Below the pieces are notes generated by a model. The model was given only the letters and a program-made list of their open reading frames with translations, had not been told where the DNA came from and did not search any database. A program made the translations under genes and the position numbers. Positions 21,602-39,915 of a DNA stretch of 64,000 bases are shown in pieces (within the stretch, counting starts at the first letter, position 1; each line of letters begins with the position of its first letter). This stretch comes from Candidatus Tectimicrobiota bacterium (GTDB taxonomy: Bacteria; JACPUC01), in the NCBI GenBank assembly GCA_016192455.1, contig JACPUC010000007.1:68720-132719 (forward strand). The letters are read 5' to 3'.

Positions 21602-23062
21602 TTAGCTTGCCGGCACCTGCTCGATCAGCACCTGCGCGGCTTGATCGGCGCTGTGGATGCAGTCGGGAATGCCGATGCCGCGGTAGGCATTGCCGGCCAG
21701 GGCGAAGCCTGGCACCCGGCGGCGCAGCGCCTCGATGGCGCGGACCTTGTCGAGGTGACCGAGGTGGTACTGCGCCATGGCGCCGGGGTGGCGGCTGACG
21801 CGCGCGAGGAGCGGCTCCTCCTTGATGCCAAGGACCGGCCGCAGATCGCCGAGCAGCGCCTGGACCATGTCGGCATCGCTCAGGGCATAGCGCTCCGGCT
21901 GCACCGCGCCGCCCACGAAAGCCCGCAGCAGCGCCACGTCCCGCGGCGAGCGCCCCTCGAACTTCACACTGCTGAACGAGCACGCGATGAGCGACTTGTC
22001 CTCAGAGCGGGGCACGACGAACCCCATGCCATCGAGGGGATGGGCGATGCTCCGGCGCCTGAACGCCAGGTTGACGATGGCCGAGGAGGCGTAGGGAACG
22101 CCGGCAAGTTGCTTGGCGAGGTCCGGCAGGAGGCCGCCTAGGAGCGCCGCGGCGGGCGGGGCCGGCAGGGCGACGCAGATGCCGTCGGCGCGCAGCGAGG
22201 CGCCGCCCTCGATGCGCACCTTCCACTGCGGCGCCTCGCCGCAATGCTCGAGCGCCACGACGCGGCAGCCGGTCCTCACGCTGCCCTCCGGAAGCTGCCC
22301 GGCAAGCCGCTCGATGAGCGTGCCGAGGCCGCGGCGCAGGGTCAGGAAGAGGCCGTAGCGCGCGCCGGCATCCTGGCGCGTATCGAGACCGCGCTTGCGC
22401 ATGGCGCGGCGGTTCTTCCACATGGCGCGGATGATGCTGCGCTCCTGCTCCTCCATCTCGAGCATCTGCGGCATGGTGGCCTGCAGGCTGAGCTGCCGCG
22501 CGTCGCCCGTGTAGATGCCGGCCACCAGCGGCTGGGCCATGCGCTCCAGAGCTTCGCGTCCCAGGCGACGGATCACGAAGGCCTCGAGCGACTCGTCCTG
22601 CGGCGCCCCGCCGTCTCGCCGTCGTCGCGGCAGCACCAAGTCCATGGCCATGCGCAGCTTGCCCCGCCAGGTGAAGAGGGGGGTGCGCAGGAATGGCCAC
22701 AGCGAGGTGGGGGCGAAGAGGAGAAACCCCTCCGGCATCGGGTGCAGGGTGTTGTCCCGCAGGATAAAGCTACCGTGCGGGGTGGACTGGGTGCGGATGA
22801 GATCATCTTGGAGCCCCAGTTCCTGGCAGAGTTTCAAGGCCCACGGCTTCGTCGTGATGAAGGCGTCGGGCCCCTCCTCCAGCAGCAGGCCTTCCTCGTG
22901 GTGGCTGTGGATGACGCCGCCGAGGCGCTGCTGGGCTTCCAGCAGGATGACCTCCACCTTCCCGCCGCGCTCGCGGCCGAGCCGCGTCAGGCGGTAGGCG
23001 GCGGCCAAGCCGGAGATTCCCCCGCCGATGACCGCAAGCTGCCGTGGAGCGTCCTGGAGCAT
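21602..23062 (-). CDS. hemY: protoporphyrinogen/coproporphyrinogen III oxidase (HemY/CgoX)
   Basis: N-terminal FAD fold VIGGGISGLAAAY and HemY-family length (486 aa). Immediately downstream of hemE. Confidence 0.8.
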   Translation of the reverse strand: MLQDAPRQLAVIGGGISGLAAAYRLTRLGRERGGKVEVILLEAQQRLGGVIHSHHEEGLLLEEGPDAFITTKPWALKLCQELGLQDDLIRTQSTPHGSFILRDNTLHPMPEGFLLFAPTSLWPFLRTPLFTWRGKLRMAMDLVLPRRRRDGGAPQDESLEAFVIRRLGREALERMAQPLVAGIYTGDARQLSLQATMPQMLEMEEQERSIIRAMWKNRRAMRKRGLDTRQDAGARYGLFLTLRRGLGTLIERLAGQLPEGSVRTGCRVVALEHCGEAPQWKVRIEGGASLRADGICVALPAPPAAALLGGLLPDLAKQLAGVPYASSAIVNLAFRRRSIAHPLDGMGFVVPRSEDKSLIACSFSSVKFEGRSPRDVALLRAFVGGAVQPERYALSDADMVQALLGDLRPVLGIKEEPLLARVSRHPGAMAQYHLGHLDKVRAIEALRRRVPGFALAGNAYRGIGIPDCIHSADQAAQVLIEQVPAS

Positions 23063-23137
23063 CGTTCTTCCATTCAGCGCCGGAGCGAGGGGGCGGATCA
23101 GCGCGTTCGCCGCCGCAGAGGGTGGCGAGCCGTCAAC

Positions 23138-24190
23138 TCAGTGGCCGTAGGCATGCACCATGTCAACGAGCGCCAGCACGTTATCCACGGGAGTCTCGGG
23201 CAGGATGCCATGGCCAAGGTTGAAGATGTGACCGCGCTTGCCAGCCGCTTGGCGCAGGATGTCGTGCGTCTTGCGGCGCAGCACCGCGCGCTCGGCGAAG
23301 AGCGCGGCGGGATCGAGGTTGCCCTGCACGCCGACGTCGCCGACCTGCTCCCAGGCGCGCCCGAAGTCGAGGTAGTGATCAATGCCGATGATCGTGCCTC
23401 CCGCCTCGCGCATCAGGGTGAGGAGCTGCGCCGTGTGGGTGCCGAAATGAATCACCGGCACTTCCGCATGGAGTCGCGCGAAGAGGGCGCGCATGTGCGG
23501 CAGCACGTACTCGGCGTAGTCAGCCGGCGACAGGCAGCCGACCCAGCTATCGAAGACTTGCAGCGCCTGCGCCCCCGCCGCAACCTGCCCGTCGAGGTGG
23601 CTTGCCACGCAGCGGCTCAGCAGCTCCATCAGCGCCTGCCAGGCCCGTGGCTCGTTGTACATGAAGGCCTTGGTGTGACGGTAGTGCCGCGACGAGCCGC
23701 CTTCGAGCATGTACGAGGCAAGGGTGAACGGCGCCCCGGCGAAGCCGATGAGCGGGATGTCCTTCGGCAGCGCGGCGCGTGTCAGGCGGAGCGCCTCGTG
23801 GACGAACGCCAGCGTTTCCCCGGGTTGGACCTCGCGCAATTTCTGCACGTCCGCGCTGGTCCGTATGCGGTTGCCCAGGCGCGGCCCGCCGTTGTCGGGA
23901 TAGTCGAGCTGCATCCCCATCGGTTCAAGAAGGACAAGGATGTCCGAGAAGATGATCGCCGCGTCCGTCTGCAGACGCCGCTGCGCCGTCACCGTCACCT
24001 CGGCGGCAAGCTCCGGCCTCTTGCAGAGATCGAGGAAGGAGACTTTGCGGCGCACCTCGCGGTACTCCCGCATGTACCTCCCCGCCTGGCGCATCAGCCA
24101 GATGGGGGTTGCGTCCACGGCTTCACGCCGGCAGGCTCGCAAGAACCGCGACTTCCTCAGCTCGTCGGAGAGCAGCGGAAGAGATGGCAA
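23138..24190 (-). CDS. hemE: uroporphyrinogen decarboxylase
   Basis: PIWLMRQAGRYM and the subsequent URO-D signature regions. 350 aa. Confidence 0.9.
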   Translation of the reverse strand: MPSLPLLSDELRKSRFLRACRREAVDATPIWLMRQAGRYMREYREVRRKVSFLDLCKRPELAAEVTVTAQRRLQTDAAIIFSDILVLLEPMGMQLDYPDNGGPRLGNRIRTSADVQKLREVQPGETLAFVHEALRLTRAALPKDIPLIGFAGAPFTLASYMLEGGSSRHYRHTKAFMYNEPRAWQALMELLSRCVASHLDGQVAAGAQALQVFDSWVGCLSPADYAEYVLPHMRALFARLHAEVPVIHFGTHTAQLLTLMREAGGTIIGIDHYLDFGRAWEQVGDVGVQGNLDPAALFAERAVLRRKTHDILRQAAGKRGHIFNLGHGILPETPVDNVLALVDMVHAYGH

Positions 24191-24309
24191 GGCAGGAATC
24201 GTCTCGTTCCCCCATCCACGACGGTCCGTGGTCAGCGCGGGGCGGTCACCCCTCCCCCTTGAGCGCGGGAAAGAGGCTCCGAGCCACCCTCGCGATGTCT
24301 GAAAATCGT

Positions 24310-25733: not shown

Positions 25734-26096
25734 CTACCGCCCCAACAGACCAGCCGTGACGCTCGACTCCAACATGGCGAAATCGACCGGCTTCGTCAGG
25801 TAGTCCACCGCGCCAAGGTGCATGCCCGTCTCGCCCAGCTCCCGCTGGTGGACCGCCGTCAGGATGATCACGGCGATACCGGGACGCATCGACTTCAGGT
25901 GCTTCAGCGTTTCCATCCCGTCCATAGTGGGCATCCGGAGATCGAGCAGGACCAGGTCGGGTGGCTCCTGGCCGACCTTCTCCAGCGCCTCCTCTCCGCT
26001 CAAGGCGTAGTCGACGGTATGGCCAAGCGTCACCAGGTACGACTGCAGCACCCGACAGGCATCCACCTCATCGTCAACCACCAAGATCCGGCCCAT
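25734..26096 (-). CDS. stand-alone CheY-like response-regulator receiver protein
   Basis: From Met MGRILVVDDE. Has the phospho-acceptor Asp in LVLLDLRMP, the conserved T (ILTA) and K (LTKP). No output domain. Confidence 0.8.
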   Translation of the reverse strand: MGRILVVDDEVDACRVLQSYLVTLGHTVDYALSGEEALEKVGQEPPDLVLLDLRMPTMDGMETLKHLKSMRPGIAVIILTAVHQRELGETGMHLGAVDYLTKPVDFAMLESSVTAGLLGR

Positions 26097-26924
26097 TGCG
26101 ACATCTTTCTCCCATCGAAACCCCTCGCTCACGAAACTTCCCGGTCCATGCTCTTCACCGGTGAAAGCGCCCTCGTGCATGGCCGTCTCCCCCTCCCTGA
26201 CAGTGACCAGGCGCCCTGAAAGAGATGCGTGCGGCGCCTGGCCCTCATCCTTGCCGCAGGCGTGTGGCTGCGCGCCCGCATGACCCCTCCGGGCCCCTCG
26301 GGGCCTCTCCCCGAGGATGAAGCCGGAGGCTCAGCTCTTCCGCCGTAAACTGACGCACCGAGGCAAGGAATCTTTCTCTAGGGTGAACGATTCTTCGTCG
26401 ATTGGCAAGCTGATCCTTAGCATCTTGCCCTCCGCCTCGACGGGTGGTGAGCGGCGCCGTGGCGCTACGGCGCCATCGCCGCGAGCGTCGTCGCCGCAAG
26501 CGCGACCTTGCAGCCAGGGCATAGCCCCAAGGCGCTCACCGCCGCCCTGGGCGGGCCGTCTCCCGCCGGGCTTCCTCCCACCACTCCCCTCACTTTGCCA
26601 GTGAACCCGTCGAGTCTCCTTCCCCTCCTGCCGCCCGGCATGTTGACCGTCGGACCCAACGTGTTGCGCCTTCACTCCAGGCAACCCTCCCGGTAGGTGG
26701 CGGGAAGCCACATCTACGTGGGGGCGCAGGGGCACCATCCGCCCCCGGCGCAGCGGCTGGGCCGTGCGCGCCCCACCCCGCCGCGGTCGGCAAGAAACCG
26801 CCGCCTCTCCCCCGCCGTGGCCCAACTATTGCTTGTAGAACACACAAAGTGAAGGTTTCTTGACTTCCCAGTCGAGACGCCTTACCCCAGGAGTGGCACA
26901 CTGCGCAACGGAGAGGAGCCGACG

Positions 26925-27908
26925 GTGTTACGCCTCGACGAGAGCCCCATCATCCTCTTCGGCGGCAAGGGGGGCGTCGGAAAGACAACCTGCGCCTGCG
27001 CCGCCGCGGTCCATCTCGCCAGCCGAGGCAAGAAGACCCTCGTTATCTCAACCGACCCAGCTCATTCCCTGGGCGATAGCCTGGGGCAACGTCTGGGGGA
27101 TGAGATGACGCAGATCACGGCGCTGCCCTCCCTCACTGCTCTCGAGCTGAACGCGGCGAAGTCCCTGCGGGAGTTCAAGGAAGAGTATGAGGAGGAGATT
27201 CTCTCCCTCCTGCGCACGGGAAGCTACCTCGATGATGCCGATCTCGCCGAGATTCTCTCCCTGAGCATCCCCGGCTTGGATGAGGTGATGGGGTTCAAAC
27301 GCATCACCGATCTCCTCGCCAGCGCCCGAGCTGACCACGTTCTCATCGATACCGCCCCGACCGGCCATGCCCTGCGCCTCCTCATGATGCCGGAGCTTGC
27401 CGACCAGTGGGTAAAGGTGCTCGCAAGCCTGCGCTGGAAGTACCGCCGGATGGTCACGCAGCTCGTCGGCGGGGTGGCGGCCGAGCGCGGCGACGACTTC
27501 CTCCTTACTCTGAAGCGCAGCGTGAAACGCATGCGCACCTGGCTGCGGGATCGACGGCGCACCCAGTTTGTCGTCGTCACCATCCCGGAGTACCTGGCGG
27601 TACGCGAGACCCAACACCTCGTCGAGGAGCTGCGCGCCGCCCACGTGCCGCTGCGGCACCTGATCATCAACCACGTGCGGGCCGGCGGCGCCCTTCCCTG
27701 TCCGTTCTGCGCCGAGGCGCGCATGGCCCAGCAACCGTACATCGCCGCGCTGCGCGCCGCCTATCCCGACCTCGCGGTAACCCTCATGATCCAGGAGCCG
27801 CGCGAGGTGCGCGGCCTCAATGCCTTGCGCTGTGTGGGGCGGCAGCTCTTCGACCGGCTTGAACCTCGCGGCCTCAGCGAGCACCTCCTGCACGCACCGG
27901 CGGGCTAG
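26925..27908 (+). CDS. ArsA/Get3-family P-loop ATPase with CxxC motif
   Basis: GTG start after GGAGAGGAG RBS. Deviant Walker A GGKGGVGKTT, the ArsA/Get3 signature DTAPTGHALRLL, and a C-terminal CPFC pair as in the Get3 zinc-bridged dimer. Confidence 0.8.
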   Translation: MLRLDESPIILFGGKGGVGKTTCACAAAVHLASRGKKTLVISTDPAHSLGDSLGQRLGDEMTQITALPSLTALELNAAKSLREFKEEYEEEILSLLRTGSYLDDADLAEILSLSIPGLDEVMGFKRITDLLASARADHVLIDTAPTGHALRLLMMPELADQWVKVLASLRWKYRRMVTQLVGGVAAERGDDFLLTLKRSVKRMRTWLRDRRRTQFVVVTIPEYLAVRETQHLVEELRAAHVPLRHLIINHVRAGGALPCPFCAEARMAQQPYIAALRAAYPDLAVTLMIQEPREVRGLNALRCVGRQLFDRLEPRGLSEHLLHAPAG

Positions 27909-28009
27909 CGACGCGGCGCGGAGGCGCGAGCGGCGCAAAAGAGATGGCGCGGCAAGCGCGCCAGAGAGCCTGGAGATGCCAGCGAGCGGCGGAGGCGGAG
28001 GAAGGAATC

Positions 28010-29059
28010 ATGGGAGTGCGGCTCTACTGCATTGTTGAGAAGGCCACGGCGCCGAGCAGCGCGGTGCCGCAGCTTCCGGAGCTGGCGCTCGGCAGCATTC
28101 AGTACCGGGACCTCCTGGCGCTGACGAGTCGTGAGCTGCAGGCGGGGCTTGCCGATCTCGACGAGGCGGCGCTGCGCGAGCAGCTTGCGCGCCACCACCG
28201 GGTGAATGAGGCGGCGGCGAAGCTTGGGGCGGTGGTGCCGCTGCGGTTCGGCACCATCGCCGCCAACCACCGCGAGGTGCGGGCCCTCCTGAAGCACGGC
28301 TACATCGAGCTGCGCAGGCTGCTTGAAAAAGTGCGCGATCGGGTGGAGGTGGTGGTGCACGGGCGCCTCGACCGCGCGCTCATCCTGCACCAGATCGCCC
28401 GCCAGGATGGCGAGGTGCAGCGCCTGCGCGCCGCCCCCCCGAGCACCGATCCCGAGACCTGCCGCGAGCAGCAGATCGCCCTCGGGAAGGCGGTGTACGA
28501 GGCCATCCATGCCTATGAACGCGGCTGCATCGCGGAGGTGCGCGCACGGCTTGGCAGGCATGCGGAGGAGGCTGCGGAGGGACGCTTGCTGGCGGAGGAG
28601 ATGGTGCTGAACCTCGGCTTCCTGGTCAGGAGCTTGGAAATCCCGGCATTCCGCGCCGCCCTCGCGGAGCTCAACCGCTCGTTCGCGGGCAACCTCATCT
28701 TGACCTGGCACGGTCCCTTGCCGCCTTACAGCTTCGCGAGCCTGCAGTTCCACCACGTCGAGTTCGAGCGCATCGACGCGGCGCGGCGGAATCTGGGCCT
28801 CGACGAAGAGGCGACGACGGCGGAGATCACCACCGCCTACCACGACCTGGCGCGCCGCTTCCATCCCGACGGCGCGGGCAATGGCGAGGGCGCCGAGACC
28901 TTCAAGGAGCTGAGCGCGGCGCGGGCGATTTTGCTGCGTTACTGCCAGAACTACCGCTACTCATTCCGACGCGAGGCCGTGGCGCGCAGCGTCATCGTCC
29001 GGGCCACCGACGCGGCGGCGGACTACACGCGGAGTCTCACCTATGTCGAAGCCTCCTGA
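28010..29059 (+). CDS. GvpL/GvpF-family gas vesicle protein fused to C-terminal DnaJ J-domain
   Basis: N-terminus GVRLYCIV, NLGFLV and WHGPLPPYSF are GvpF/L hallmarks. The C-terminal ~60 aa LGLDEEATTAEITTAYHDLARRFHPDG...FKELSAARAIL carry the HPD tripeptide and helix pattern of a J-domain. Confidence 0.75.
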   Translation: MGVRLYCIVEKATAPSSAVPQLPELALGSIQYRDLLALTSRELQAGLADLDEAALREQLARHHRVNEAAAKLGAVVPLRFGTIAANHREVRALLKHGYIELRRLLEKVRDRVEVVVHGRLDRALILHQIARQDGEVQRLRAAPPSTDPETCREQQIALGKAVYEAIHAYERGCIAEVRARLGRHAEEAAEGRLLAEEMVLNLGFLVRSLEIPAFRAALAELNRSFAGNLILTWHGPLPPYSFASLQFHHVEFERIDAARRNLGLDEEATTAEITTAYHDLARRFHPDGAGNGEGAETFKELSAARAILLRYCQNYRYSFRREAVARSVIVRATDAAADYTRSLTYVEAS

Positions 29060-29828
29060 GGCCGGCGTCTACTGCTACGGCATCTGCCGCAGCTCAACCC
29101 CGCGGAGCTTCGGCCCCCTCGGCATCGGCGCGCACGGTGACGAGGTGCGGACCCTCGCCGTCGGGGAGATCGCCGCGGTGGTGAGCTGCTCGCCGGCCGG
29201 CACGTACCGCGTCTCGCGCCAGAACGTCCTGGCCCATCAGCAAGTCCTCGAGGCCGTCATGCCGCACTCGCCGGTGCTGCCGATCCGTTTCAGCACCGTC
29301 GCCGACTCCGCCGCGCAGGTCATCGCCGTTCTGGAATCCCGCTACGAGGAATTCGACCACCTCCTCGAACGCATGACGGGGAAGCATGAGCTGGGCGTGA
29401 AGGCGATCTACCGCGAGGCCGTCATCTATGCGGAGCTCGTCGAGGCTGAGCCACGCATTCAGCGCCTGAAACAACGGCTCACGGGAACGCGTCTCGAGGA
29501 GAGCTACTACCCGCGTCTCGAGCTGGGTCGCCTCGTGGAGGCCGCCCTGGCGGCGAAGCGCGAGCGGGAGGGGGCGGCTCTCCTCGCCCTCCTGGCGCCG
29601 CATGCGGTGGAGCACCGACAGGGGCGGCTGTTGCACGAGCGGATGCTCCTAAATGCGGCCTTCCTTGTCGAGAAGGCCCGGGAACGCTCCTTCGATGAGG
29701 TCGTGGAGGAGCTGTCGCGGCGACACGACGCGCGCATAGAGCTGCGGTACGTGGGCCCCATGCCGCCCTACAACTTCGTGAACCTCACGATCAACCTGCG
29801 CGCCGAGCGTGCGCCCTCGCCGCGCTAG
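29043..29828 (+). CDS. gvpF: GvpF/GvpL-family gas vesicle protein
   Basis: GVYCYGI..., LNAAFLV, YVGPMPPYNF. 261 aa. Confidence 0.75.
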   Translation: MSKPPEAGVYCYGICRSSTPRSFGPLGIGAHGDEVRTLAVGEIAAVVSCSPAGTYRVSRQNVLAHQQVLEAVMPHSPVLPIRFSTVADSAAQVIAVLESRYEEFDHLLERMTGKHELGVKAIYREAVIYAELVEAEPRIQRLKQRLTGTRLEESYYPRLELGRLVEAALAAKREREGAALLALLAPHAVEHRQGRLLHERMLLNAAFLVEKARERSFDEVVEELSRRHDARIELRYVGPMPPYNFVNLTINLRAERAPSPR

Positions 29829-29859
29829 GTTGCCTGAAGCAGCCTGGGGGAGAACTTCC

Positions 29860-30090
29860 ATGTTCCTTCTCGACGATCTTCTCCTGCTCCCTTTCCGCGG
29901 CTTGCTCGGCATCCTGAAGGAGATTCAGCGGCTCGCCGAGCAGGAGACCTCCGATCGCGCCAGGCTGCACGAGAAGTTGCTCTACGCGCAGCTCCAGTTT
30001 GAGCTCGATGAAATCACCGAGGCCGAGTACCAGCAGCGCGAGGAGGAGATTCTCCAGCGCTTGCAGCTCCTGGAAGAGGTTGAGCGCTGA
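29860..30090 (+). CDS. gvpG: gas vesicle protein GvpG
   Basis: From Met MFLLDDLLLLPFRGLLGILKEI... with an acidic coiled-coil tail, as in GvpG (~80 aa). A GGGGGAG RBS is upstream. Confidence 0.6.
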   Translation: MFLLDDLLLLPFRGLLGILKEIQRLAEQETSDRARLHEKLLYAQLQFELDEITEAEYQQREEEILQRLQLLEEVER

Positions 30091-30455
30091 TGCCGAGCAG
30101 ACGACCCAGAACCTCGGAACGGCGAGGCGGCGACAACGGCGACCTTGAGGGCGCGGCTCCTCCTCAAGGTTGCGCTGAGACGAGAGGACACCCTGCCATG
30201 CAGCTCAGAGAGGCGGGCGAGGCGGTGCGGCGGGCGCTCTCGGAGGTGCTCGCCAAGCGGGGCGAGATCGTCACCCTGCGCAGGACCGAGGAGGGGTGGG
30301 AGTCGCACGTCGAGGTAGTGGAAGAGAACGAGTACCTCAAGGCCCTCGGCAAGCATGTCGTGGATCGGAACTACTACGTGATCGAGCTCAGCGAGGCGTT
30401 GGAGGTGGTCGCCTACGACCGCCTGGCGAAGAAGCCCCCGGCACGAGAAGAGTAA
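30090..30455 (+). CDS. gvpO: gas vesicle protein GvpO
   Basis: ATG overlaps the gvpG stop (TGATG). The core LRRTEEGWESHVEVVEENEY resembles the GvpO motif LRRSDDGWRVTMDVVE. An alternative start is ATG 30198. Confidence 0.6.
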   Translation: MPSRRPRTSERRGGDNGDLEGAAPPQGCAETRGHPAMQLREAGEAVRRALSEVLAKRGEIVTLRRTEEGWESHVEVVEENEYLKALGKHVVDRNYYVIELSEALEVVAYDRLAKKPPAREE

Positions 30456-30458
30456 CGC

Positions 30459-31391
30459 ATGGCTCCCCTGCAGACCCCTGATACTCCCGCGCGCGGCCTC
30501 TACGCCTACGCTGTCCTCGAGCCCCACCGCCAACCGCCGCCTGGGGGGCCGCTTGGGGTCATCGGCATCGACGGCGCGAGCCCGGTGGAATTCGTCGGCC
30601 ATGGAGCCGTCCTGGCCGCGGTGAGCGAGGTGGCACTCGAGGAGTTCACGGGCGAGCGTCTGAAGGCCAATCTCCAGGAGATGCGCTGGCTCTCCCGCAG
30701 GGTTAGCGCCCACGAGGCCGTCGTGGAGCGCCTGATGGCATGGGGAACCCTGGCGCCCATGAAGTTCGGCACCCTCTTCTCGAGTCTCGCCGCGCTGCGG
30801 CGGTTTCTGCGCGCCTCCCATGAGGATCTGCGCGACACCCTGGCGGCGCTGCGCCTGCATGAGGAGTGGGGCGTGAAGGTCTACGGCCGTAGCCCAGCGG
30901 TGCGGACGCTGCGTCGCCGGCTGGAGGACGACCAGGAGCGCTTAGGCACGGAGCGGAGCGAGGCGGCGTCCCTGCCTGCCGGGCGCGCCTACTTCCAGCG
31001 CAAGCAAACCGAATGGGCGCTGCTGCGGGAGAGCGACGCGACCATGGAAGCCCTGGCGCGGCATATCCACGCCCTGCTCGGCGGCCAGGCGTCGCGCAGC
31101 GCGATCAGCCCCGCGCCGGGCGGCTTTCCCCTCGCTGCCGCGCCAGCGGAGCGCGGCGCGCAGGACCGTGGCGCAGAGGAGGGCGGCCCACGGGGGGGGA
31201 CGAGGGAGAGCTGGGAACTGCTCCTCAATGCAGCCTACCTCGTGCCGCTCGGTAACCGGCAGCGCTTCCTGGCCTGCGCCGCCTGGTCAAACGACCAGCA
31301 CCAGGCGCCTGGCCTGCGTCTGGCGATCACCGGCCCGTGGCCACCCTATCATTTCACCCCTTCATGCTGGAAGCGAGGTGCCCGTGTTTGA
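30459..31391 (+). CDS. gvpL: GvpL/GvpF-family gas vesicle protein
   Basis: GLYAYAV..., LNAAYLV, ITGPWPPYHF. 310 aa. Confidence 0.75.
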   Translation: MAPLQTPDTPARGLYAYAVLEPHRQPPPGGPLGVIGIDGASPVEFVGHGAVLAAVSEVALEEFTGERLKANLQEMRWLSRRVSAHEAVVERLMAWGTLAPMKFGTLFSSLAALRRFLRASHEDLRDTLAALRLHEEWGVKVYGRSPAVRTLRRRLEDDQERLGTERSEAASLPAGRAYFQRKQTEWALLRESDATMEALARHIHALLGGQASRSAISPAPGGFPLAAAPAERGAQDRGAEEGGPRGGTRESWELLLNAAYLVPLGNRQRFLACAAWSNDQHQAPGLRLAITGPWPPYHFTPSCWKRGARV

Positions 31392-31608
31392 CGACCCCAT
31401 CGTTGAGAACGAGCAGACATCGATGCGGCGCGTAAAACTCGTCGAGGTCCTCGACCGGCTCCTCAACCGCGGGGTGTACCTGGAGGGAGACCTGACGCTG
31501 GCGGTTGCCAACATCGACCTCATCTACGTCGGGCTGCGCGTCCTCGTCAGCTCAATTGAGACGGCGCAGCGGATCGCCTCCCGGAGCGGCAGTGGAGCCT
31601 GCGAGTGA
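31378..31608 (+). CDS. GvpA-family small gas vesicle protein (GvpS/GvpM/GvpJ-like)
   Basis: In-frame inside ORF 31168..31608. LVEVLDRLLNRGVYLEGDLTLAVANIDLIYVGLRVLVSSIETAQR matches the GvpA core. Start is GTG 31378 (after GAAGCGAGG) or ATG 31423. Confidence 0.75.
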   Translation: MPVFDDPIVENEQTSMRRVKLVEVLDRLLNRGVYLEGDLTLAVANIDLIYVGLRVLVSSIETAQRIASRSGSGACE

Positions 31609-31621
31609 GCTTGGAGGAAGC

Positions 31622-32380
31622 ATGAGCGGCGAACTCTACGTCTACGGCATCGTCGACAGCCGCTGCGGCCTGGCGATCGCGGGGCGCGGCATGGCCGGAG
31701 GCTCCTTGCAGCTCCTGGCCTGGCATGAGATCGGCGCCGTGGTCAGCAGCGGCGGCTCCTTCCCTCTGCGCTATGAGACCGAACACGTCCTGCACCACGA
31801 GCGCGTCCTGGAGCGGCTCATGAAGGGCCATAGCGTGCTTCCCTGTCGCTTCGACTTGCGCCTGCGGGACGAGGAGGAGGTGGCGGCGCTCCTGCAAGGG
31901 AAGTATGCCGCATTCCGGGCAAACTTGCGGCGCGTCGCGGACACGCAGGAGTGGTGCGTGAGAGCGCTGTGGGACCCCGAGGAGCTGGCCGCCTGGGAAG
32001 AGCTGTCGCCCCATGGAAGTTCTGAACGCATCAACGTCGATGTCTCGGATTCGCCTGACGGCGGCGCGGCCTACCTGCTCCGCAAGTGCCAGGCCTGGCG
32101 GCGGGAGGCGCTCCTGCATGACTTCGCCGAGACCCTCATCGAGGCGGTCCACGAGCCTCTCCAACGTCATGCCCAGGAGAGCCTCACGCGCAAGTGCCTG
32201 AGCGAGCGACTCATTCTCGCCGCCGCCTATCTGGTGCCGCGATGCCGGGCTGCCGAGTTTGTGGCCTGCTTCCGCCGCCAACGTCTGGCGTTCGCGCATC
32301 TCCAGTTTCTCCTTAGCGGACCCTGGCCGCCCAGCAGCTTCATCGACGAAGAGCTGCGGGGGCCGCTCATGGTCACCTGA
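31622..32380 (+). CDS. gvpF: GvpF/GvpL-family gas vesicle protein
   Basis: ATG after GGAGGAAG RBS. ELYVYGIV, LAAAYLV, LSGPWPPSSF. Confidence 0.75.
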   Translation: MSGELYVYGIVDSRCGLAIAGRGMAGGSLQLLAWHEIGAVVSSGGSFPLRYETEHVLHHERVLERLMKGHSVLPCRFDLRLRDEEEVAALLQGKYAAFRANLRRVADTQEWCVRALWDPEELAAWEELSPHGSSERINVDVSDSPDGGAAYLLRKCQAWRREALLHDFAETLIEAVHEPLQRHAQESLTRKCLSERLILAAAYLVPRCRAAEFVACFRRQRLAFAHLQFLLSGPWPPSSFIDEELRGPLMVT

Positions 32381-32432: not shown

Positions 32433-32774
32433 ATGTTTAACGAGTCGACCATTCACGGTGAGCGACTGGAGGACTTCGCCGCTGAGATGGAAAGGATCGC
32501 CAAGCCTCGCGCGCGGCGCATCAATGCAGATCCAGAGCGCGCCGAACAAGGGCTGGCCAAGCTGGTGCTGACACTCATCGAGCTGCTGCGCCAGCTCCTC
32601 GAACGGCAGGCGGTGCGGCGGGTCGAGGCCGGCAGCCTGAGCGCCGATGAGGTGGAGCGGCTGGGTCTGACGCTCATGAAGCTCGAGGCGAAGATGGAAG
32701 AGCTGAAATCCCTCTTCGGTCTGCATGATCAGGATCTCAACCTGAACCTGGGGCCGTTCGGCGATCTCCTCTAG
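32433..32774 (+). CDS. gvpK: gas vesicle protein GvpK
   Basis: GLAKLVLTLIELLRQLLERQAVRRVEAGSLSADEVERLG is the conserved GvpK core. Confidence 0.7.
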   Translation: MFNESTIHGERLEDFAAEMERIAKPRARRINADPERAEQGLAKLVLTLIELLRQLLERQAVRRVEAGSLSADEVERLGLTLMKLEAKMEELKSLFGLHDQDLNLNLGPFGDLL

Positions 32775-33080: not shown

Positions 33081-33473
33081 ATGTCGTGGAGCACAGAGAT
33101 GCAGGCACTTCGGATGGAGATTGAGTCTTCGTTCAAGGATCGACGCCAGATGCTCCTTGGCCTGCAGCGGCGGGAGTACGCGCGCAAGGAGAGCTGCGCT
33201 GATTTCATGACGGCGCTGCACACGGCGCAGGGCGAACAGACGCGGGCGCTGTGGGCAATGCTCGGTGAGAGCCGGCGCCAGGGCCGGCAGCGTTTCAACA
33301 CGCTCATGGAGGGCTGCAAGGCGAAGCGGCGCGAACACCGCGAAATCCTCGCGGCCCTGTTCCGTTCCAGTCGCGCCAGCCTTGCGGCGCTGCGCCGCGC
33401 CTTGGAGCAGAGCGGTGAGGAGTGGCGCGCCATGCGGAGCAGAATTGCCGCGGGTGTCGGCGCGCCGCACTAG
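33081..33473 (+). CDS. hypothetical basic helical protein inside gvp cluster
   Basis: 130 aa, Arg/Glu-rich, no recognisable family. Strong RBS. Confidence 0.5.
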   Translation: MSWSTEMQALRMEIESSFKDRRQMLLGLQRREYARKESCADFMTALHTAQGEQTRALWAMLGESRRQGRQRFNTLMEGCKAKRREHREILAALFRSSRASLAALRRALEQSGEEWRAMRSRIAAGVGAPH

Positions 33474-33843: not shown

Positions 33844-34152
33844 ATGGAAACCGCGCCAATAACGAGCATCTCGCACTCGACCGGGGCGGTGACGCTCGCG
33901 GACATCTTGGAGCGAGTCCTCGACAAGGGAATCGTCATTGCCGGCGACATCAGCATCTCGCTGGCTGACGTGCAGCTCCTGACGATCAGGATTCGGCTGC
34001 TCATCGCCTCTGTCGACAAGGCGCGGGAGATGGGCATCTCCTGGTGGGAAGGCGACGGCTTCCTCTCCTCGAAGGCGCGCGAGATCGAGGCGGAGAACCG
34101 CGACTTGAAGGCGCGTCTCGCCCGGCTCGAGGAGGGTTGCAACGCCTCCTGA
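33844..34152 (+). CDS. gvpJ: GvpA-family gas vesicle protein with C-terminal extension (GvpJ-like)
   Basis: ATG after AAGGAG RBS. LADILERVLDKGIVIAGDISISLADVQLLTIRIRLLIASVDKAREMGI is the GvpA/J core. A ~40-aa coiled-coil tail follows. Confidence 0.8.
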   Translation: METAPITSISHSTGAVTLADILERVLDKGIVIAGDISISLADVQLLTIRIRLLIASVDKAREMGISWWEGDGFLSSKAREIEAENRDLKARLARLEEGCNAS

Positions 34153-34344
34153 GCAGGGGCGTTGGAGGTTCCTCCCGCGGCGGGAGGAGCAGGTCCTCCT
34201 CGGCGGGGCGAGGGGCGTGGTGAGAGGTCGGCAGGAGCGGCGCGGAGCACACACAGCCGGCGCGGTAGGCCGGCAGGAGGCAGCAAGACGACACGGCTGC
34301 CGCTGTCTTCACGAGGCAGGAGTCAAGCCAGGGAGAGCGTCACG

Positions 34345-35499
34345 ATGGCGATCGAGGAGTTTCCCACACTCTTGGCGCCGCGGCAGGCGGATGGGTTTGT
34401 CGAGACGGCGTACGTCCGCGACCTCAGCACGCGCAGTCTCGCTGCCATTGAAGCCGGTTTCCCCATTCACTTCCGCGGCGTCTCCGGCAGCGGCAAGACG
34501 ACGCTGGCGATGCACGTGGCCTCCAAGGTCGGCAGGCCGGTGGTCCTCTTGCACGGCAACGAAGAGCTGAGCACGTCGGAGCTGATCGGCGGCGAACAGG
34601 GCTACCGCTTCCGCCGCGTGGTCGACCGCTTCATTCACTCGGTGCTGAAGACCGAGGAAGACCTCACGAAGCACTGGGTCGACAACCGGCTCACCATCGC
34701 CTGCAAGCACGGCTTCACCCTCGTTTACGACGAGTTCAGCCGCTCGCGCCCCGAGGCCAACAACATCCTTCTCTCCATCCTGCAGGAGAAGATTCTCGAC
34801 CTGCCGATGCTGCGAGGCCACGAGCACTACCTGAAGGTGCACCCCAACTTCACCGCCATCTTCACCAGCAACCCCGAGGACTATGCCGGCGTCTTCAAGA
34901 CGCAGGACGCCTTGCGTGACCGCATGATCACCTTCGACCTCGACTTCTTCGACCGCGCCACGGAGGCGGCGATCAGCCAGGCCAAGTCCGGCCTGCCGCT
35001 CGGCGCGGTGGAACGCATCGTCGACCTCGTGCAAGGGTTTCGACAAAGCCAGCAGTACGACTTCGCCCCCACGGTGCGGGCCTGCATCATGATCGCCAAG
35101 CTGACGCGCGTGCGCGGCGCCTCGGCGGCCGCCAACGACCCGGTGTTCCGCCAAATCTGCGCCGACGTGCTCATTTCGGAAACGAGCCGGGTGGGTCTGC
35201 ACGGCAAGAGATTGAAGGTCGATCAGATGCTGGCGCGCCTGATCGACAGGCACTGCGCGGCGGCGCCGCAGGCGAGCCAAGCGAGGAAGAGCTCTCCAGC
35301 CTCTCTCGGTCCCGAGGCGCAGAGCATGGCGGCGAACGGCCCCTCCTCGAGCAGTAGCGGTGGCTTGCAGGAGAACCGGAACCCGACCCGAGGCGCGGGG
35401 GCAAACGCACCAGCGGGACTCTGGCAGCGGCGACAGGGTGAGCCGGTTGCCCCAGCCTCGGCAGGCAATCAGGCGCCCGGCACGCACCGCCACGTTTAG
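34345..35499 (+). CDS. gvpN: gas vesicle AAA+ ATPase GvpN (CbbQ/NorQ family)
   Basis: ATG after AGGGAGAG. Walker A FRGVSGSGKTT, Walker B LVYDEFSRS, and AAA sensor regions. Typical GvpN size. Confidence 0.85.
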   Translation: MAIEEFPTLLAPRQADGFVETAYVRDLSTRSLAAIEAGFPIHFRGVSGSGKTTLAMHVASKVGRPVVLLHGNEELSTSELIGGEQGYRFRRVVDRFIHSVLKTEEDLTKHWVDNRLTIACKHGFTLVYDEFSRSRPEANNILLSILQEKILDLPMLRGHEHYLKVHPNFTAIFTSNPEDYAGVFKTQDALRDRMITFDLDFFDRATEAAISQAKSGLPLGAVERIVDLVQGFRQSQQYDFAPTVRACIMIAKLTRVRGASAAANDPVFRQICADVLISETSRVGLHGKRLKVDQMLARLIDRHCAAAPQASQARKSSPASLGPEAQSMAANGPSSSSSGGLQENRNPTRGAGANAPAGLWQRRQGEPVAPASAGNQAPGTHRHV

Positions 35500-35523: not shown

Positions 35524-35829
35524 ATGAAGGGCCTCGCGGATCTCAAAACCGCTCGACACGTGAAGATGCGGGGTATGCCGCAGGTCGCGCAGTCTCCGCC
35601 CATCGAACTCTTCATGCTCGGCAAGCAGAAGGAGCGCCTGGAGAAGGAAGAGCAGCAGCTCCTGAAAGCCTTGCAGCGCACGCAGCACACCCTGCGACAC
35701 CTGGCGCAGCGCCTGGAGAGCCTGCGGCAGGAGATCGCCAGGGAAGGCGGCGGCGCCGCGAACGCCGAGCCAGCAGCAGGAGAGCCGCACGGCACGCGCG
35801 GCTGGCAGACGATGCCGTTAACCTACTGA
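35524..35829 (+). CDS. small coiled-coil protein (paralog of 37204..37401)
   Basis: [39 protein letters not shown] is a heptad-rich helix. It shares a QKER-L...L motif with the ORF at 37204. Confidence 0.4.
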
Positions 35830-35995: not shown

Positions 35996-36211
35996 ATGGC
36001 AGTCGAAAAAGCAATCGGGTCATCGAGCCTGGTCGAAGTGGTCGACCGCATCCTGGACAAGGGCATCGTCATCGACGCCTGGGTGAGAGTCTCCCTCGTG
36101 GGGATCGAGCTCCTGGCAATCGAAGCCCGCGTCGTCGTCGCGGGTGTCGACACGTATCTGAAGTACGCCGAGGCCATCGGCCTGACGGCCACGGCCGCCG
36201 CGCCCGCGTAG
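35996..36211 (+). CDS. gvpA: major gas vesicle structural protein GvpA
   Basis: [63 protein letters not shown] is nearly identical to canonical cyanobacterial GvpA. A GGAGG RBS lies 9 nt upstream. Confidence 0.9.
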
Positions 36212-36426: not shown

Positions 36427-36587
36427 GCCCGGCGGCGGCAGGCCCGCCGCGTCCTAAAGGTCCGGTCGGGCGGCAGGCTGCCGTTCCCGGAGCCGACGGT
36501 CCGCCCCGGGCGGCCGGCATGGACGCCGGCGCCTCATTCGTTCATCCCGCACCGATCCAGGTGCCATGGCAAGAAGGAGACCGGCTG

Positions 36588-37139
36588 ATGAGTCGGCGCA
36601 AGACGAGCGGCCCAGCGGGGCTCGGTGGCGTCTTCAAGGGTATCGCCTCGTTCATCGACCTCCTCGTTGACCTCACCGAGGAGGGTGCAGGCAAAGAGGA
36701 GGACAGCACCGAGGAGGGCAAGGGGATCAAGCGGTCGCGGGAGTTCCGCGGCGCCACGGCGAGCGGCAAAGAGTTTCGCGGCGTGTACGGGTTTTCGGTG
36801 CGGATGGGACTGGGCGGGCCGGAGGTGGAGACGTTCGGCAACCTCCACCCCGCCGACGAGGGCGCCGTGGTGGAGGAACGCCGCGAGCCCCTGGTCGACG
36901 TCTTCGATGAGGGGCAAAGCCTGCAGGTGGTGGTGGAGCTGCCGGGGGTGGAGGAGGAGAGCATTGATGTTCGCCTCGCCGACGATGTCCTCATCCTCTC
37001 CACCGAGCGCGGCGCCCGCAAGTACTACAAGGAGGTGCTGCTGCCCGCGCCGGTGGAGGCGCAGAGCCTGGTCCGCACCTACCGCAACGGCATCTTCGAG
37101 GTGCGCCTGCAGAAGCGAGCCGAGCCGCCGCGGGAGTGA
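36588..37139 (+). CDS. Hsp20/alpha-crystallin family small heat-shock protein (GvpH-like)
   Basis: ATG after AAGGAGA. Alpha-crystallin domain VDVFDEGQSLQVVVELPGVEEESIDVRLADDVLILSTERG...GIFEVRL. Confidence 0.8.
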   Translation: MSRRKTSGPAGLGGVFKGIASFIDLLVDLTEEGAGKEEDSTEEGKGIKRSREFRGATASGKEFRGVYGFSVRMGLGGPEVETFGNLHPADEGAVVEERREPLVDVFDEGQSLQVVVELPGVEEESIDVRLADDVLILSTERGARKYYKEVLLPAPVEAQSLVRTYRNGIFEVRLQKRAEPPRE

Positions 37140-37613: not shown

Positions 37614-39779
37614 TCACGTTGACCGATCACTAGCGCCACGCCGCCAAGGGCGCAGCGCCTCGTCGAAGTGGCGCCCGGAGATGCGCAAGGAGCCAGCCCC
37701 GTCATCGGCGGCGTTGCGGCCGCGCAGGAATTCCCGCACGGCGCACATCCCGGCCTCGCGGCAGAGGGCCTCAATCTGCGCTCCCTGCCAACCGCTGGTG
37801 GCGAGGACCAGCGCCGCCAGATCGACATCGGCGCTTAGCGGCATGCGGCGGGTGTGCACCTCGAGAATCTCCCGCCGCCCCTCATCATCCAGGGGCCCCA
37901 CCTCGAGCTGCAGGTCGAAGCGCCCGGAGCGCAGCAGCGCCGGATCGACCATATCAATGCGGTTCGTGGTGGCCAGGACGATCACCCCCTTCTGGCTCTC
38001 GATGCCGTCAAGCTCGGTAAGGAGCTGGCTGACCACCCGCTCGGTGACGCCGGCGCTCTCGCCGTGCCCGCGCACCGGCGCCAGGGCGTCGATCTCATCG
38101 AAGAAGAGGATGCACGGCGCCGCCTGCCGGGCTTTGCGGAAGAGCTCCCGCACGCCCCGCTCCGCCTCGCCCACCCACTTGGAGATGAGCTCCGGCCCCT
38201 TCACGGAGATGAAGTTGATCTGGCACTCCGTGGCGACGGCCTTCGCCAGCAGGGTCTTGCCGCAGCCGGGAGGGCCGTAGATGAGGATGCCCTTCGGAGG
38301 GCGCAGGTGCGCCTCCTCGAACAGCCGCCGGTGGCGCAGCGGCCACTCGATGTTCTCCTGCAACCACTGTTTCGTCGCCGCCAGGCCACCCACATCGTCC
38401 CAGCTCACGTTCGGCACCTCAAGGGAGACCTCCCGCAAGCCCGAGGGCTCGACCTCCCGCAGGGCCGCCAGGAAGTCGTCGCGCCCCACCCGCAGATCGA
38501 GGAGCTCCTCGTAGGGGATGCGCTGGCTCTCAAAGTCGACCCGCGGCAGGAGGCGGCGCAGGGCCACCATGGCGGCTTCGCGGCAGAGGGCCTGGAGATC
38601 GGCGCCGACGAAGCCAAGGGTGAGCTGGGCGAACTCCTGCAGGTCCACCTCCTCGGAGAGCGGCATGCCGCGGGTGTGGATCTCGAGGATACGCTGGCGC
38701 CCGGTGGTGTCGGGCACGCCGATGACGAGCTCGCGGTCGAACCTCCCCGGGCGGCGCAGGGCCGGGTCGAGGGCGTTCGGGATGTTCGTGGCGCCGATCA
38801 CGATCACCTGGCCGCGCTCGCGCAGACCGTCCATGAGCGCTAGAAGCTGCGCCACGACGCGCTTCTCCACCTCGCCGATGGCCGTCTCCCGCTTCGGCGC
38901 GATGGCATCAATCTCATCCAGGAAGAGGATGCTGGGCGCCTGCTTGCTTGCCTCGTCGAAGAGCTTGCGCAGCTTCGCCTCGCTCTCGCCGTAGAACTTG
39001 TGGATGACCTCCGGCCCGTTGACCGCGAGGAAGTGGGCTTCGGTCTCGTGCGCCACGGCGCGGGCGATGAGGGTCTTGCCGCAGCCCGGCGGGCCGACCA
39101 GGAGCACGCCCTTGGGGGCGTCGATGCCAAGGCGCTCGAAGACCTGCGGGTGCTTCAACGGCAGCTCGATCATCTCGCGGATGCGCTGCACCTCCCGCCC
39201 CAGGCCGCCGATGTCGTCATACGTCGTCTTTGCCGGGCTGGGACGCGCTCCTTTCTCGTGGGCGATACTGAGAACGGTGGTGGGGTGCACCACCACGGCG
39301 CCGTCCGGGATCGTCTCGGCGACGAGGAAGTCATAGGAGCGCGCCCCGAAAAGGTTGGCCCGCACCGTATCCCCCCTGGTCACCGGCAGGCCCTCCATGA
39401 GGCGCACCAGGTAGCGGTGATCGCGCTCCGACAGGGGGCTGCGCAGAAGCGTGCGCGGGTTCAGCGTGATCTTGGCGGCGGCCTGGCAGGCGGTTTTCTC
39501 CACCAGCACCTTCTCGTCCAGCCCCACCTTGGCGTTGCCGCGCACCAGGCCATCGATCTGCACCAGGCGCTGGCCGCGCTCGGCGGCAAAGGCCGGCATC
39601 GCCTTCGCCACGGTCTGCTGCTTGCCCGTAATGCGCACGACATCGCCCACCGCCACATCGAGCTCCTTCATATCCGCCGGATCGAGGCGGGCGATGCCGC
39701 GGCCGACATCCTTGGAATGCGCCTCCACAACACGGAGCTGCAAGCTGGCCTGGGGTTCGGCCTCGGGCGCCATACTCAT
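37614..39779 (-). CDS. Cdc48/VCP/VAT-like double AAA+ ATPase
   Basis: N-terminal double-psi/Cdc48 domain, then two AAA modules, each with Walker A GPPGCGKT, Walker B DEID and second-region-of-homology motifs. Convergent with the gvp operon. Confidence 0.85.
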   Translation of the reverse strand: MSMAPEAEPQASLQLRVVEAHSKDVGRGIARLDPADMKELDVAVGDVVRITGKQQTVAKAMPAFAAERGQRLVQIDGLVRGNAKVGLDEKVLVEKTACQAAAKITLNPRTLLRSPLSERDHRYLVRLMEGLPVTRGDTVRANLFGARSYDFLVAETIPDGAVVVHPTTVLSIAHEKGARPSPAKTTYDDIGGLGREVQRIREMIELPLKHPQVFERLGIDAPKGVLLVGPPGCGKTLIARAVAHETEAHFLAVNGPEVIHKFYGESEAKLRKLFDEASKQAPSILFLDEIDAIAPKRETAIGEVEKRVVAQLLALMDGLRERGQVIVIGATNIPNALDPALRRPGRFDRELVIGVPDTTGRQRILEIHTRGMPLSEEVDLQEFAQLTLGFVGADLQALCREAAMVALRRLLPRVDFESQRIPYEELLDLRVGRDDFLAALREVEPSGLREVSLEVPNVSWDDVGGLAATKQWLQENIEWPLRHRRLFEEAHLRPPKGILIYGPPGCGKTLLAKAVATECQINFISVKGPELISKWVGEAERGVRELFRKARQAAPCILFFDEIDALAPVRGHGESAGVTERVVSQLLTELDGIESQKGVIVLATTNRIDMVDPALLRSGRFDLQLEVGPLDDEGRREILEVHTRRMPLSADVDLAALVLATSGWQGAQIEALCREAGMCAVREFLRGRNAADDGAGSLRISGRHFDEALRPWRRGASDRST

Positions 39780-39915
39780 CTCCTTTCGCGGTACTCCGCT
39801 CCACCTGCCGAGCTGTCCTGGAATCAACAGCCGAACGGCCGGCTCGCGCCCGCGACACGGGGAGGTGCAGCGAGGCGAGTCGCGCTCCGGCAGCGGCCGG
39901 CGCGCTCGCCGCGGT

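Follow-up and report, generated by a model that had tools for sequence, protein, structure and literature searches.

We analysed a 64-kb window of Candidatus Tectimicrobiota DNA (positions 68,720 to 132,719 of contig JACPUC010000007.1; coordinates below are those of the window), which carries a gas-vesicle (gvp) gene cluster. One gene of the cluster encodes a protein in which a gas-vesicle protein of the GvpL/GvpF (GvpF/L) family is continued by a J-domain. It is a genuine two-domain protein and not an assembly artefact. As judged from sequence comparison, the fusion is not a one-off but a large, widespread orthologous clade inside GvpF/L. We suggest, as a probable though by no means assured reading, that the fusion protein is a specialised class-C J-protein of the gvp cluster, whose GvpF/L fold would act as the client or site module coupling Hsp70 to the shell proteins.

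Architecture and integrity of the fusion protein

Residues 5-243 of the 349-residue protein match the GvpL/GvpF family PF06386 with 163.2 bits against a gathering score of 23.6 (E 1.4e-47). An earlier note, written from the letters of the window without database searches, had assigned the first part of the protein to GvpF/L by the strings LYCIV, NLGFLV and WHGPLPPYSF, which are located at residues 5-9, 201-206 and 233-242. It had assigned the last ~60 residues to a J-domain with the HPD tripeptide by the strings TAYHDLARRFHPDG and FKELSAARAILL, which are located at residues 275-288 and 297-308. Both identities are borne out by Pfam and by structure comparison, and only the placement of the second is to be corrected: the J-domain occupies residues ~252-312, and a conserved tail of 37 residues follows it. 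In the alignment to PF00226 that the note had proposed, the J-domain passes the gathering score of 27.8, with 38.9 bits for residues 262-308 of the whole protein (E 9.4e-10) and 41.8 bits for the isolated C-terminal 104 residues (E 1.2e-10).

The AlphaFold2 model of the fusion protein, made from a 118-sequence alignment, has a mean predicted local distance difference test score (pLDDT) of 89.3 and a predicted template modelling score (pTM) of 0.80. The J-domain helices are modelled at residues 252-261 (helix I), 270-284 (helix II) and 293-312 (helix III), and H285-P286-D287 lies in the loop between helices II and III. The tail is modelled, with good confidence, as a short helix (321-325) and a beta-strand (327-333), and the final 13 residues are disordered. 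The pTM value and the tail helix and strand suggest a J-domain that is in effect inserted and rests against the GvpF body of the model, not a free appendage. The tail motif YC-x(3-6)-SF-x-x-E-x-V-x(3)-hydrophobic strand-R recurs in distant family members.

Foldseek search against the PDB places the GvpF crystal structures 6L5D and 4QSG at the top (E ~1e-12), with chain B of 6L5D matched at E 7e-13 and a template modelling score, target-normalised, of 0.78; the two-domain alpha/beta fold of these structures is shared by the model. J-domain structures are matched as well, more than 20 of them, with probability 1.00 and root-mean-square deviations of 0.9-1.6 A over 51 residues. The PDB sequence search returns the same two groups, GvpF (6l5d, 4qsg) and J-domains.

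Pfam detects in the fusion protein neither a glycine/phenylalanine-rich (G/F) region nor a zinc finger nor a DnaJ C-terminal domain, with no DnaJ_C or DnaJ_CXXCXGXG match at E <= 1, and the NCBIfam DnaJ equivalog TIGR02349 scores 31.8 bits against its cut-off of 377. We therefore class it as a class-C J-protein. The scores against the NCBIfam equivalogs for cyanobacterial GvpF (NF052351, 61.3 bits, cut-off 350) and for GvpL (NF045778, 35.9 bits, cut-off 200) also stay below the cut-offs, thus the protein is assignable to neither GvpF nor GvpL.

The gene is one unbroken open reading frame (ORF), and its domain junction is ordinary coding DNA in which any sign of a frameshift is absent. NCBI holds the identical 349 residues as MBI3090076.1 under the title 'MAG: GvpL/GvpF family gas vesicle protein [Candidatus Tectomicrobia bacterium]', and the protein search finds the identical protein on 5 contigs. 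We favour the start at ATG 28010 because of the Shine-Dalgarno-like site GGAGGCGGAGGAAGG in front of it, the N-termini of the homologues, which begin at the equivalent residue, and the NCBI gene model. A longer ORF from the upstream ATG 27944 is conceivable but less likely on the same grounds.

An 87 % identical orthologue from a different sample and an unrelated sequencing run carries both Pfam domains, and the gene order around it is that of the window: ferrochelatase, a response regulator on the opposite strand, ArsA, the fusion gene and GvpF. Both domains are also found in two proteins that are only 29-32 % identical, one of them flanked by an Hsp20 gene and gvpF. A frameshift or a chimeric join of gvpF/L with a separate dnaJ-like gene, which the earlier note had named as the way in which its reading could fail, is refuted by the unbroken ORF with its ordinary junction, by the identical copies and the syntenic 87 % orthologue, and by the family described below, with more than 130 distant representatives of fixed domain spacing and 80 loci across many phyla. 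We thus regard an assembly or annotation artefact as extremely improbable.

A widespread clade and its gene neighbourhoods

A profile built from the first four matches was run exhaustively with HMMER against 1.84 billion cluster representatives (50 % identity) and yields 736 proteins at E <= 1e-30. Among the 150 best of these, nearly all have 330-370 residues and match the profile from ~5 to ~315-340, spanning both domains. The C-terminal HPD is present in 137/153 family sequences, typically 47-48 residues past PPYSF, and in the family alignment of 150 sequences the conservation of H285, P286 and D287 is at least 90 % each. A further search finds about 80 clusters with the precomputed Pfam annotation PF00226 plus PF06386. 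Where NCBI gives such clusters a name, it is only 'GvpL/GvpF family gas vesicle protein' (Chloroflexota, Dehalococcoidia, Coprothermobacterota, Elusimicrobia), and one Joint Genome Institute record is named 'DnaJ-domain-containing protein 1'. The fusion, which the earlier note had proposed to look for in orthologues elsewhere, is thus found in more than 130 distant representatives and in loci of many phyla.

For each GTDB species we also searched a single genome with a 12-sequence C-terminal alignment of the PPYSF-plus-J-domain fragment. A strict match to [VI]GPLPPYSF was demanded, and of the 345 loci confirmed in this way the best 80 were retained. Some of the 345 may be plain GvpF/L; the best 80 all reach through the J-domain. 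With this motif requirement and this choice of loci, the taxon list and the neighbourhood percentages are therefore a sample, not a census. The 80 loci come from Nitrospinota, KSB1, Planctomycetota (one of them an anammox planctomycete), Desulfobacteraceae, Syntrophales, Chloroflexota (Anaerolineae, Dehalococcoidia, Chloroflexia, Ktedonobacter), Actinomycetota, Acidobacteriota, Omnitrophota, Bacteroidota, Verrucomicrobiota, Latescibacterota and Zixibacteria, and from one short contig binned as Methanoperedens. In Oscillochloris sp. ZM17-4, whose RefSeq genome is not a metagenome-assembled one, both domains are above threshold and HPD is intact.

To place the fusion inside its family, the J-domain was trimmed and the GvpF/L bodies alone were compared across loci. 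The best cross-locus match of a trimmed fusion body is another fusion in 83/83 cases, and that of a plain GvpF/L paralogue is a plain one in 144/144; the three plain paralogues of the window behave likewise. This split of the best matches fits a single fusion event with subsequent inheritance together with the cluster.

ORFs were called in the 80 loci (1.08 Mb in total) and labelled by BLASTP against the Gvp proteins of the window and the nucleotide-binding domain of Escherichia coli DnaK. A gvp cluster is present at 80/80 loci, and in 49 of them a plain gvpF lies directly downstream of the fusion gene. A gene for a Cdc48-like double-ring AAA+ ATPase is found in 63/80 loci, directly upstream of the fusion gene in 44, an Hsp20 gene in 57/80 and an ArsA/Get3-like ATPase gene in 28/80.

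A same-strand DnaK/Hsp70 paralogue is encoded in 21/80 loci. About 17 of these are full length (569-653 residues), and the others are cut by the end of the locus. They usually stand at the distal end of the cluster, preceded by a gene of the GvpA family and at most loci followed by an Hsp20 gene; in three Anaerolineales loci the Hsp70 gene stands directly upstream of the fusion gene. In the Hsp70s that were tested, the Pfam HSP70 model is matched over its full length (E below 1e-190), and scores of 908 and 727 bits lie above the NCBIfam DnaK cut-off of 648. R167 of DnaK contacts the J-domain aspartate, and the motif RI(I/V)NEPTA with the equivalent of this residue is kept in 21/21 cluster Hsp70s. 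With one to a few hsp70 genes per genome, we infer a chance expectation of less than one such gene in 1.08 Mb, so that cluster-encoded Hsp70 would be strongly enriched. Hence the part of the earlier note that linked the fusion to Hsp70 gains support from these paralogues, and its addition that Hsp70 is recruited to nascent vesicles stays a conjecture.

We note that full-length cluster Hsp70s occur in Chloroflexota, Planctomycetota and Desulfobacterota (e.g. L048:7471-9303, L083:17455-19164 and L085:15160-16905). Those of Desulfobacterota are short (569 residues), with a deletion of ~25 residues in the nucleotide-binding domain relative to E. coli DnaK.

Proposed role and competing explanations

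In scanning mutagenesis of the E. coli DnaJ J-domain, Y25, K26, HPD and F47 are reported to be essential in vivo. We aligned 217 family C-termini to this domain and use its numbering. HPD is present in 169/217, and among these 169 the residues H33-P34-D35 are invariant, R or K at position 22 is found in 149, Y25 in 147, R26 in 126 and F47 in 122. The protein of the window retains Y25, HPD and F47.

We suggest the following sequence of events. The GvpF/L body would hold an aggregation-prone subunit of the GvpA family, or would sit in a nucleation complex of GvpF, GvpG, GvpJ and GvpK. The HPD loop would then trigger ATP hydrolysis in an Hsp70 placed beside the bound hydrophobic subunit, an Hsp70 that in about a quarter of the related clusters would be the one encoded in the cluster itself. 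Hsp70 would capture, hand over or release the client, which would thereby enter the growing shell instead of aggregating. The client is presumably of the GvpA type, and the assembly step may be either delivery at the nascent vesicle or holding before assembly. Together with the fusion protein, the Hsp20 and the Cdc48-like AAA+ ATPase that are its usual companions probably form part of one module devoted to proteostasis.

Several observations speak against this proposal. No Hsp70 gene is present in the 64-kb window, as searched with motif expressions and by tblastn with the nucleotide-binding domain of E. coli DnaK as query. The Hsp70 partner would have to be the housekeeping DnaK or a paralogue encoded outside the window. 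The protein of the window has T22, H26 and D27 at positions that are basic in the family and in DnaJ, with R30 and R31 nearby, and the 87 % orthologue has the same derived non-basic helix II; judging from the residues, this could weaken the binding of Hsp70. In a sister subclade, which makes up 38/114 new matches of the further search, HPD is replaced (e.g. by EQRN or TLRS, the region typically reading ...AYRRLAAEEQRN...). Both HPD-less clusters that were inspected (L084, L085) still contain Hsp70, Hsp20 and Cdc48-like genes, with Hsp70 split into two ORFs in one of them, thus the loss of HPD does not track the loss of Hsp70. The J-domain may hence act besides, or instead of, ATPase stimulation, e.g. 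in docking. Finally, GvpF binds the interior, hydrophobic, gas-facing side of the shell protein, according to Xu et al. 2014 as cited in PMC11445434. This site is out of the reach of Hsp70, therefore any Hsp70 step would precede incorporation, which speaks against an action on finished vesicles.

HPD-less proteins (e.g. P0175, P0200, P0236 and P0243) keep the J-like helices and the tail, with a PF00226 score of 17.8 bits or no match, and they may depend on another J-protein. No locus with both an HPD and an HPD-less copy was found. In L085, small ORFs with faint matches to the DnaJ zinc finger (CXXCXGXG) lie directly upstream of the HPD-less gene. In the 64-kb window, a search with the J-domain hidden Markov model of the family finds no second J-domain.

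The persistence of the fold in HPD-less proteins leads to the explanation that the C-terminal domain is only J-like, a structural or docking domain that works independently of Hsp70 and contacts the Cdc48-like ATPase or another Gvp, with HPD as an evolutionary leftover. The missing basic residues at 22, 26 and 27, the window free of Hsp70 genes and the pTM of 0.80, which suggests a domain packed on the GvpF body in the model with no free linker, would all agree with it. However, the co-conservation of Y25, R26 and F47 in the C-termini that bear HPD is hard to explain without Hsp70, and the strong enrichment of cluster-encoded Hsp70 genes also stands against a purely docking role, which we consider unlikely.

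Another explanation keeps Hsp70 and moves the step to quality control or recycling. By analogy with the disaggregase formed by small heat-shock proteins, DnaK/DnaJ and ClpB, the fusion protein, Hsp70, Hsp20 and the Cdc48-like unfoldase might extract misassembled or collapsed GvpA lattices. The frequency of the Cdc48-like gene in the 80 clusters, its position immediately upstream of the fusion gene in more than half of them and the frequency of Hsp20 would suit such a role, and the window encodes both. Aggregation and proteotoxicity of GvpA in heterologous expression are documented (PMC12848028; PMC11445434). Nevertheless, the fusion gene lies among the core assembly genes F, G, J and K and is translationally coupled to gvpF, and the sequence does not separate delivery from extraction, the two roles being compatible with each other. 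We consider the disaggregase a somewhat unlikely main function. The data, being those of sequence, fit equally well the recruitment of Hsp70 to nascent vesicles, a hand-off of soluble GvpA-type subunits by Hsp70 before assembly, and quality control.

The proposal of a gvp-specific class-C J-protein can be compared with known systems. Class-C J-proteins with a dedicated Hsp70 include HscB, which works with HscA on the Fe-S scaffold IscU, and auxilin, which works with Hsc70 in uncoating clathrin lattices. Like them, the fusion protein joins a J-domain to a specialised client or site module and lacks the G/F region, the zinc finger and the DnaJ C-terminal domain, and as with hscA and hscB, a dedicated Hsp70 paralogue is encoded in the same operon-like cluster at many related loci. 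Unlike in those pairs, the J-domain is C-terminal and, in the model, apparently packed on the client-binding domain, and the role of the protein is a putative one. To our knowledge, the GvpF/L fold is not the client module of any described J-protein. With the class A/B Hsp40 proteins DnaJ and CbpA the fusion protein shares the J fold, HPD and the equivalents of Y25 and F47, and it differs from them by having no G/F, zinc-finger or C-terminal substrate-binding domains.

The characterised GvpF (4QSG of Microcystis, 6L5D of Anabaena) and the GvpL/GvpF proteins of haloarchaea and Bacillus megaterium belong to the same Pfam family and share with the fusion protein the fold over residues 5-249, the C-terminal PPY-x-F motif and the gvp location beside gvpG, gvpJ and gvpK. 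However, the PPYxF strand is their last element (the solved chains have 244-253 residues), where the fusion protein goes on into the J-domain and the tail, and the fusion differs from the named GvpF and GvpL also by the failed equivalog cut-offs and by its separate orthologous clade. In the systems studied, GvpF binds hydrophobic GvpA, and the partners of GvpL are GvpJ, GvpS/M and GvpK. Among the Gvp proteins it is chiefly GvpF that binds the shell protein GvpA2, which it was proposed to 'chaperone', and GvpL interacts with GvpJ, GvpS and GvpK (PMC11445434). Hsp20/GvpH and ArsA homologues were noted in gvp clusters by Castillo & Saier 2010 (PMC2963123), who proposed chaperone and energising roles for them; the terms DnaJ and Hsp70 each occur 0 times in the text of that paper. 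The cluster of the window has both of their chaperone-related genes, Hsp20 and ArsA, flanking the core genes.

A full-text search, in which subscription journals are thinly covered, found no literature on a GvpF/L-J-domain protein or on Hsp70 as a component of gvp clusters, and the full-text search found none on Cdc48-like ATPases as such components. The Hsp70/J-domain layer of gvp clusters thus seems not to have been described before. The earlier note's view that the fusion is undescribed holds in that no paper describing it was found; the fusion is not rare, though, and its members are already deposited as 'GvpL/GvpF family' proteins.

Such a protein would bear on two problems: by what means the extremely hydrophobic GvpA stays in solution and is inserted into the growing gas-filled shell, and what the essential GvpF/L proteins do. 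A natural, conserved fusion of GvpF/L with a J-domain, often with an Hsp70 in the cluster, is direct genomic evidence for GvpF/L proteins as client adaptors of a chaperone pathway. The family gives a concrete and cheaply testable hypothesis on the role of GvpF/L and points to a cluster-encoded chaperone suite. It is conceivable, if short of probable, that the gvp clusters of many mostly uncultured phyla encode a complete private chaperone machine and that their shell assembly is ATP-driven and Hsp70-dependent. The parts of this machine would be a small heat-shock protein, an Hsp70 paralogue, the J-protein adaptor with GvpF/L fold, the Cdc48-like unfoldase and the Get3/ArsA-like ATPase. If this is true, the GvpF/L fold would by implication serve in general as a holdase of GvpA-type subunits, and the old question of the role of GvpF and GvpL would be settled. 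Heterologous expression of gas vesicles, used in ultrasound imaging, is limited by proteotoxicity and chaperone capacity, and clusters with their own Hsp70, J-protein, small heat-shock protein and AAA+ ATPase may be a better chassis or a source of helper genes.

The gas-vesicle cluster of the window

The features of the fusion gene and the genes around it are collected in Table 1.

Table 1. Fusion gene, its parts and the recognised genes of the gas-vesicle cluster (window coordinates).
Feature	Position	Strand	Basis or remark
ArsA/Get3-family ATPase, directly upstream of the fusion gene	26925-27908	+	PF02374 E 7e-69; TIGR00345 241 bits, cut-off 135
Shine-Dalgarno-like site GGAGGCGGAGGAAGG	27991-28005	+	5-19 nt 5' of ATG 28010; read from sequence
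Fusion gene, GvpF/L plus J-domain, complete	28010-29059	+	349 residues plus stop, one unbroken ORF
GvpL/GvpF domain, residues 5-243, family motif GPLPPYSF at its end	28022-28738	+	PF06386
J-domain, residues ~252-312	28763-28945	+	PF00226, secondary structure of the model, Foldseek
HPD tripeptide H285-P286-D287 (CAT CCC GAC)	28862-28870	+	sequence
Family-specific tail, 37 residues (YCQNYRYSFRREAVARSVIVRATD...)	28946-29056	+	homologue alignment, model
GvpF paralogue, plain	29043-29828	+	Pfam; start overlaps the 3' end of the fusion gene by 17 nt
GvpG	29809-30090	+	Pfam
GvpO	30090-30455	+	Pfam
GvpF/L paralogue, plain	30459-31391	+	
GvpF/L paralogue, plain	31505-32380	+	
GvpK	32433-32774	+	
GvpJ-like, GvpA family	33844-34152	+	
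GvpN-type AAA_5 ATPase	34162-35499	+	true start probably near 34345
GvpA, major shell protein	35996-36211	+	PF00741 E 1e-16
Hsp20/GvpH-like small heat-shock protein	36519-37139	+	
Cdc48-family double-ring AAA+ ATPase, convergent with the end of the gvp cluster	37614-39827	-	TIGR01243 911 bits, cut-off 803

The ArsA/Get3-type ATPase of the window is a single-domain protein of 327 residues, and the gvp-associated ArsA homologues in the 2010 survey are two-domain proteins of ~600 residues (PMC2963123). Upstream of its gene lies a gene for a single-domain response regulator (25734-26180, - strand), which is kept in the 87 % orthologous locus.

Three ORFs on the + strand have no Pfam match: 33081-33473 (130 residues) between gvpK and gvpJ, 35524-35829 (101 residues) between gvpN and gvpA, and 22244-24262 (672 residues) in or beside the cluster. 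They may encode unrecognised Gvp accessory proteins, or possibly are no genes.

Just past the Cdc48-like gene, the - strand carries the genes for a sigma-54-dependent response regulator of the NtrC type (39916-41430) and, further on, for a PAS histidine kinase (41871-43361). GvrA and GvrB are gas-vesicle regulators of Serratia, and by analogy with them the NtrC-type regulator and the PAS kinase are candidate regulators of the gvp cluster.

Last, the window also carries a complete Gabija anti-phage pair on the + strand, identified with PADLOC: GajA at 12189-14096 (PDLC00086, E 1.7e-227) and GajB at 13963-15789 (PDLC00104, E 8.6e-199). The pair lies in a low-GC island (12189-15789) with a guanine-plus-cytosine fraction of 0.55-0.56 against ~0.66 elsewhere, and this island was probably acquired horizontally.

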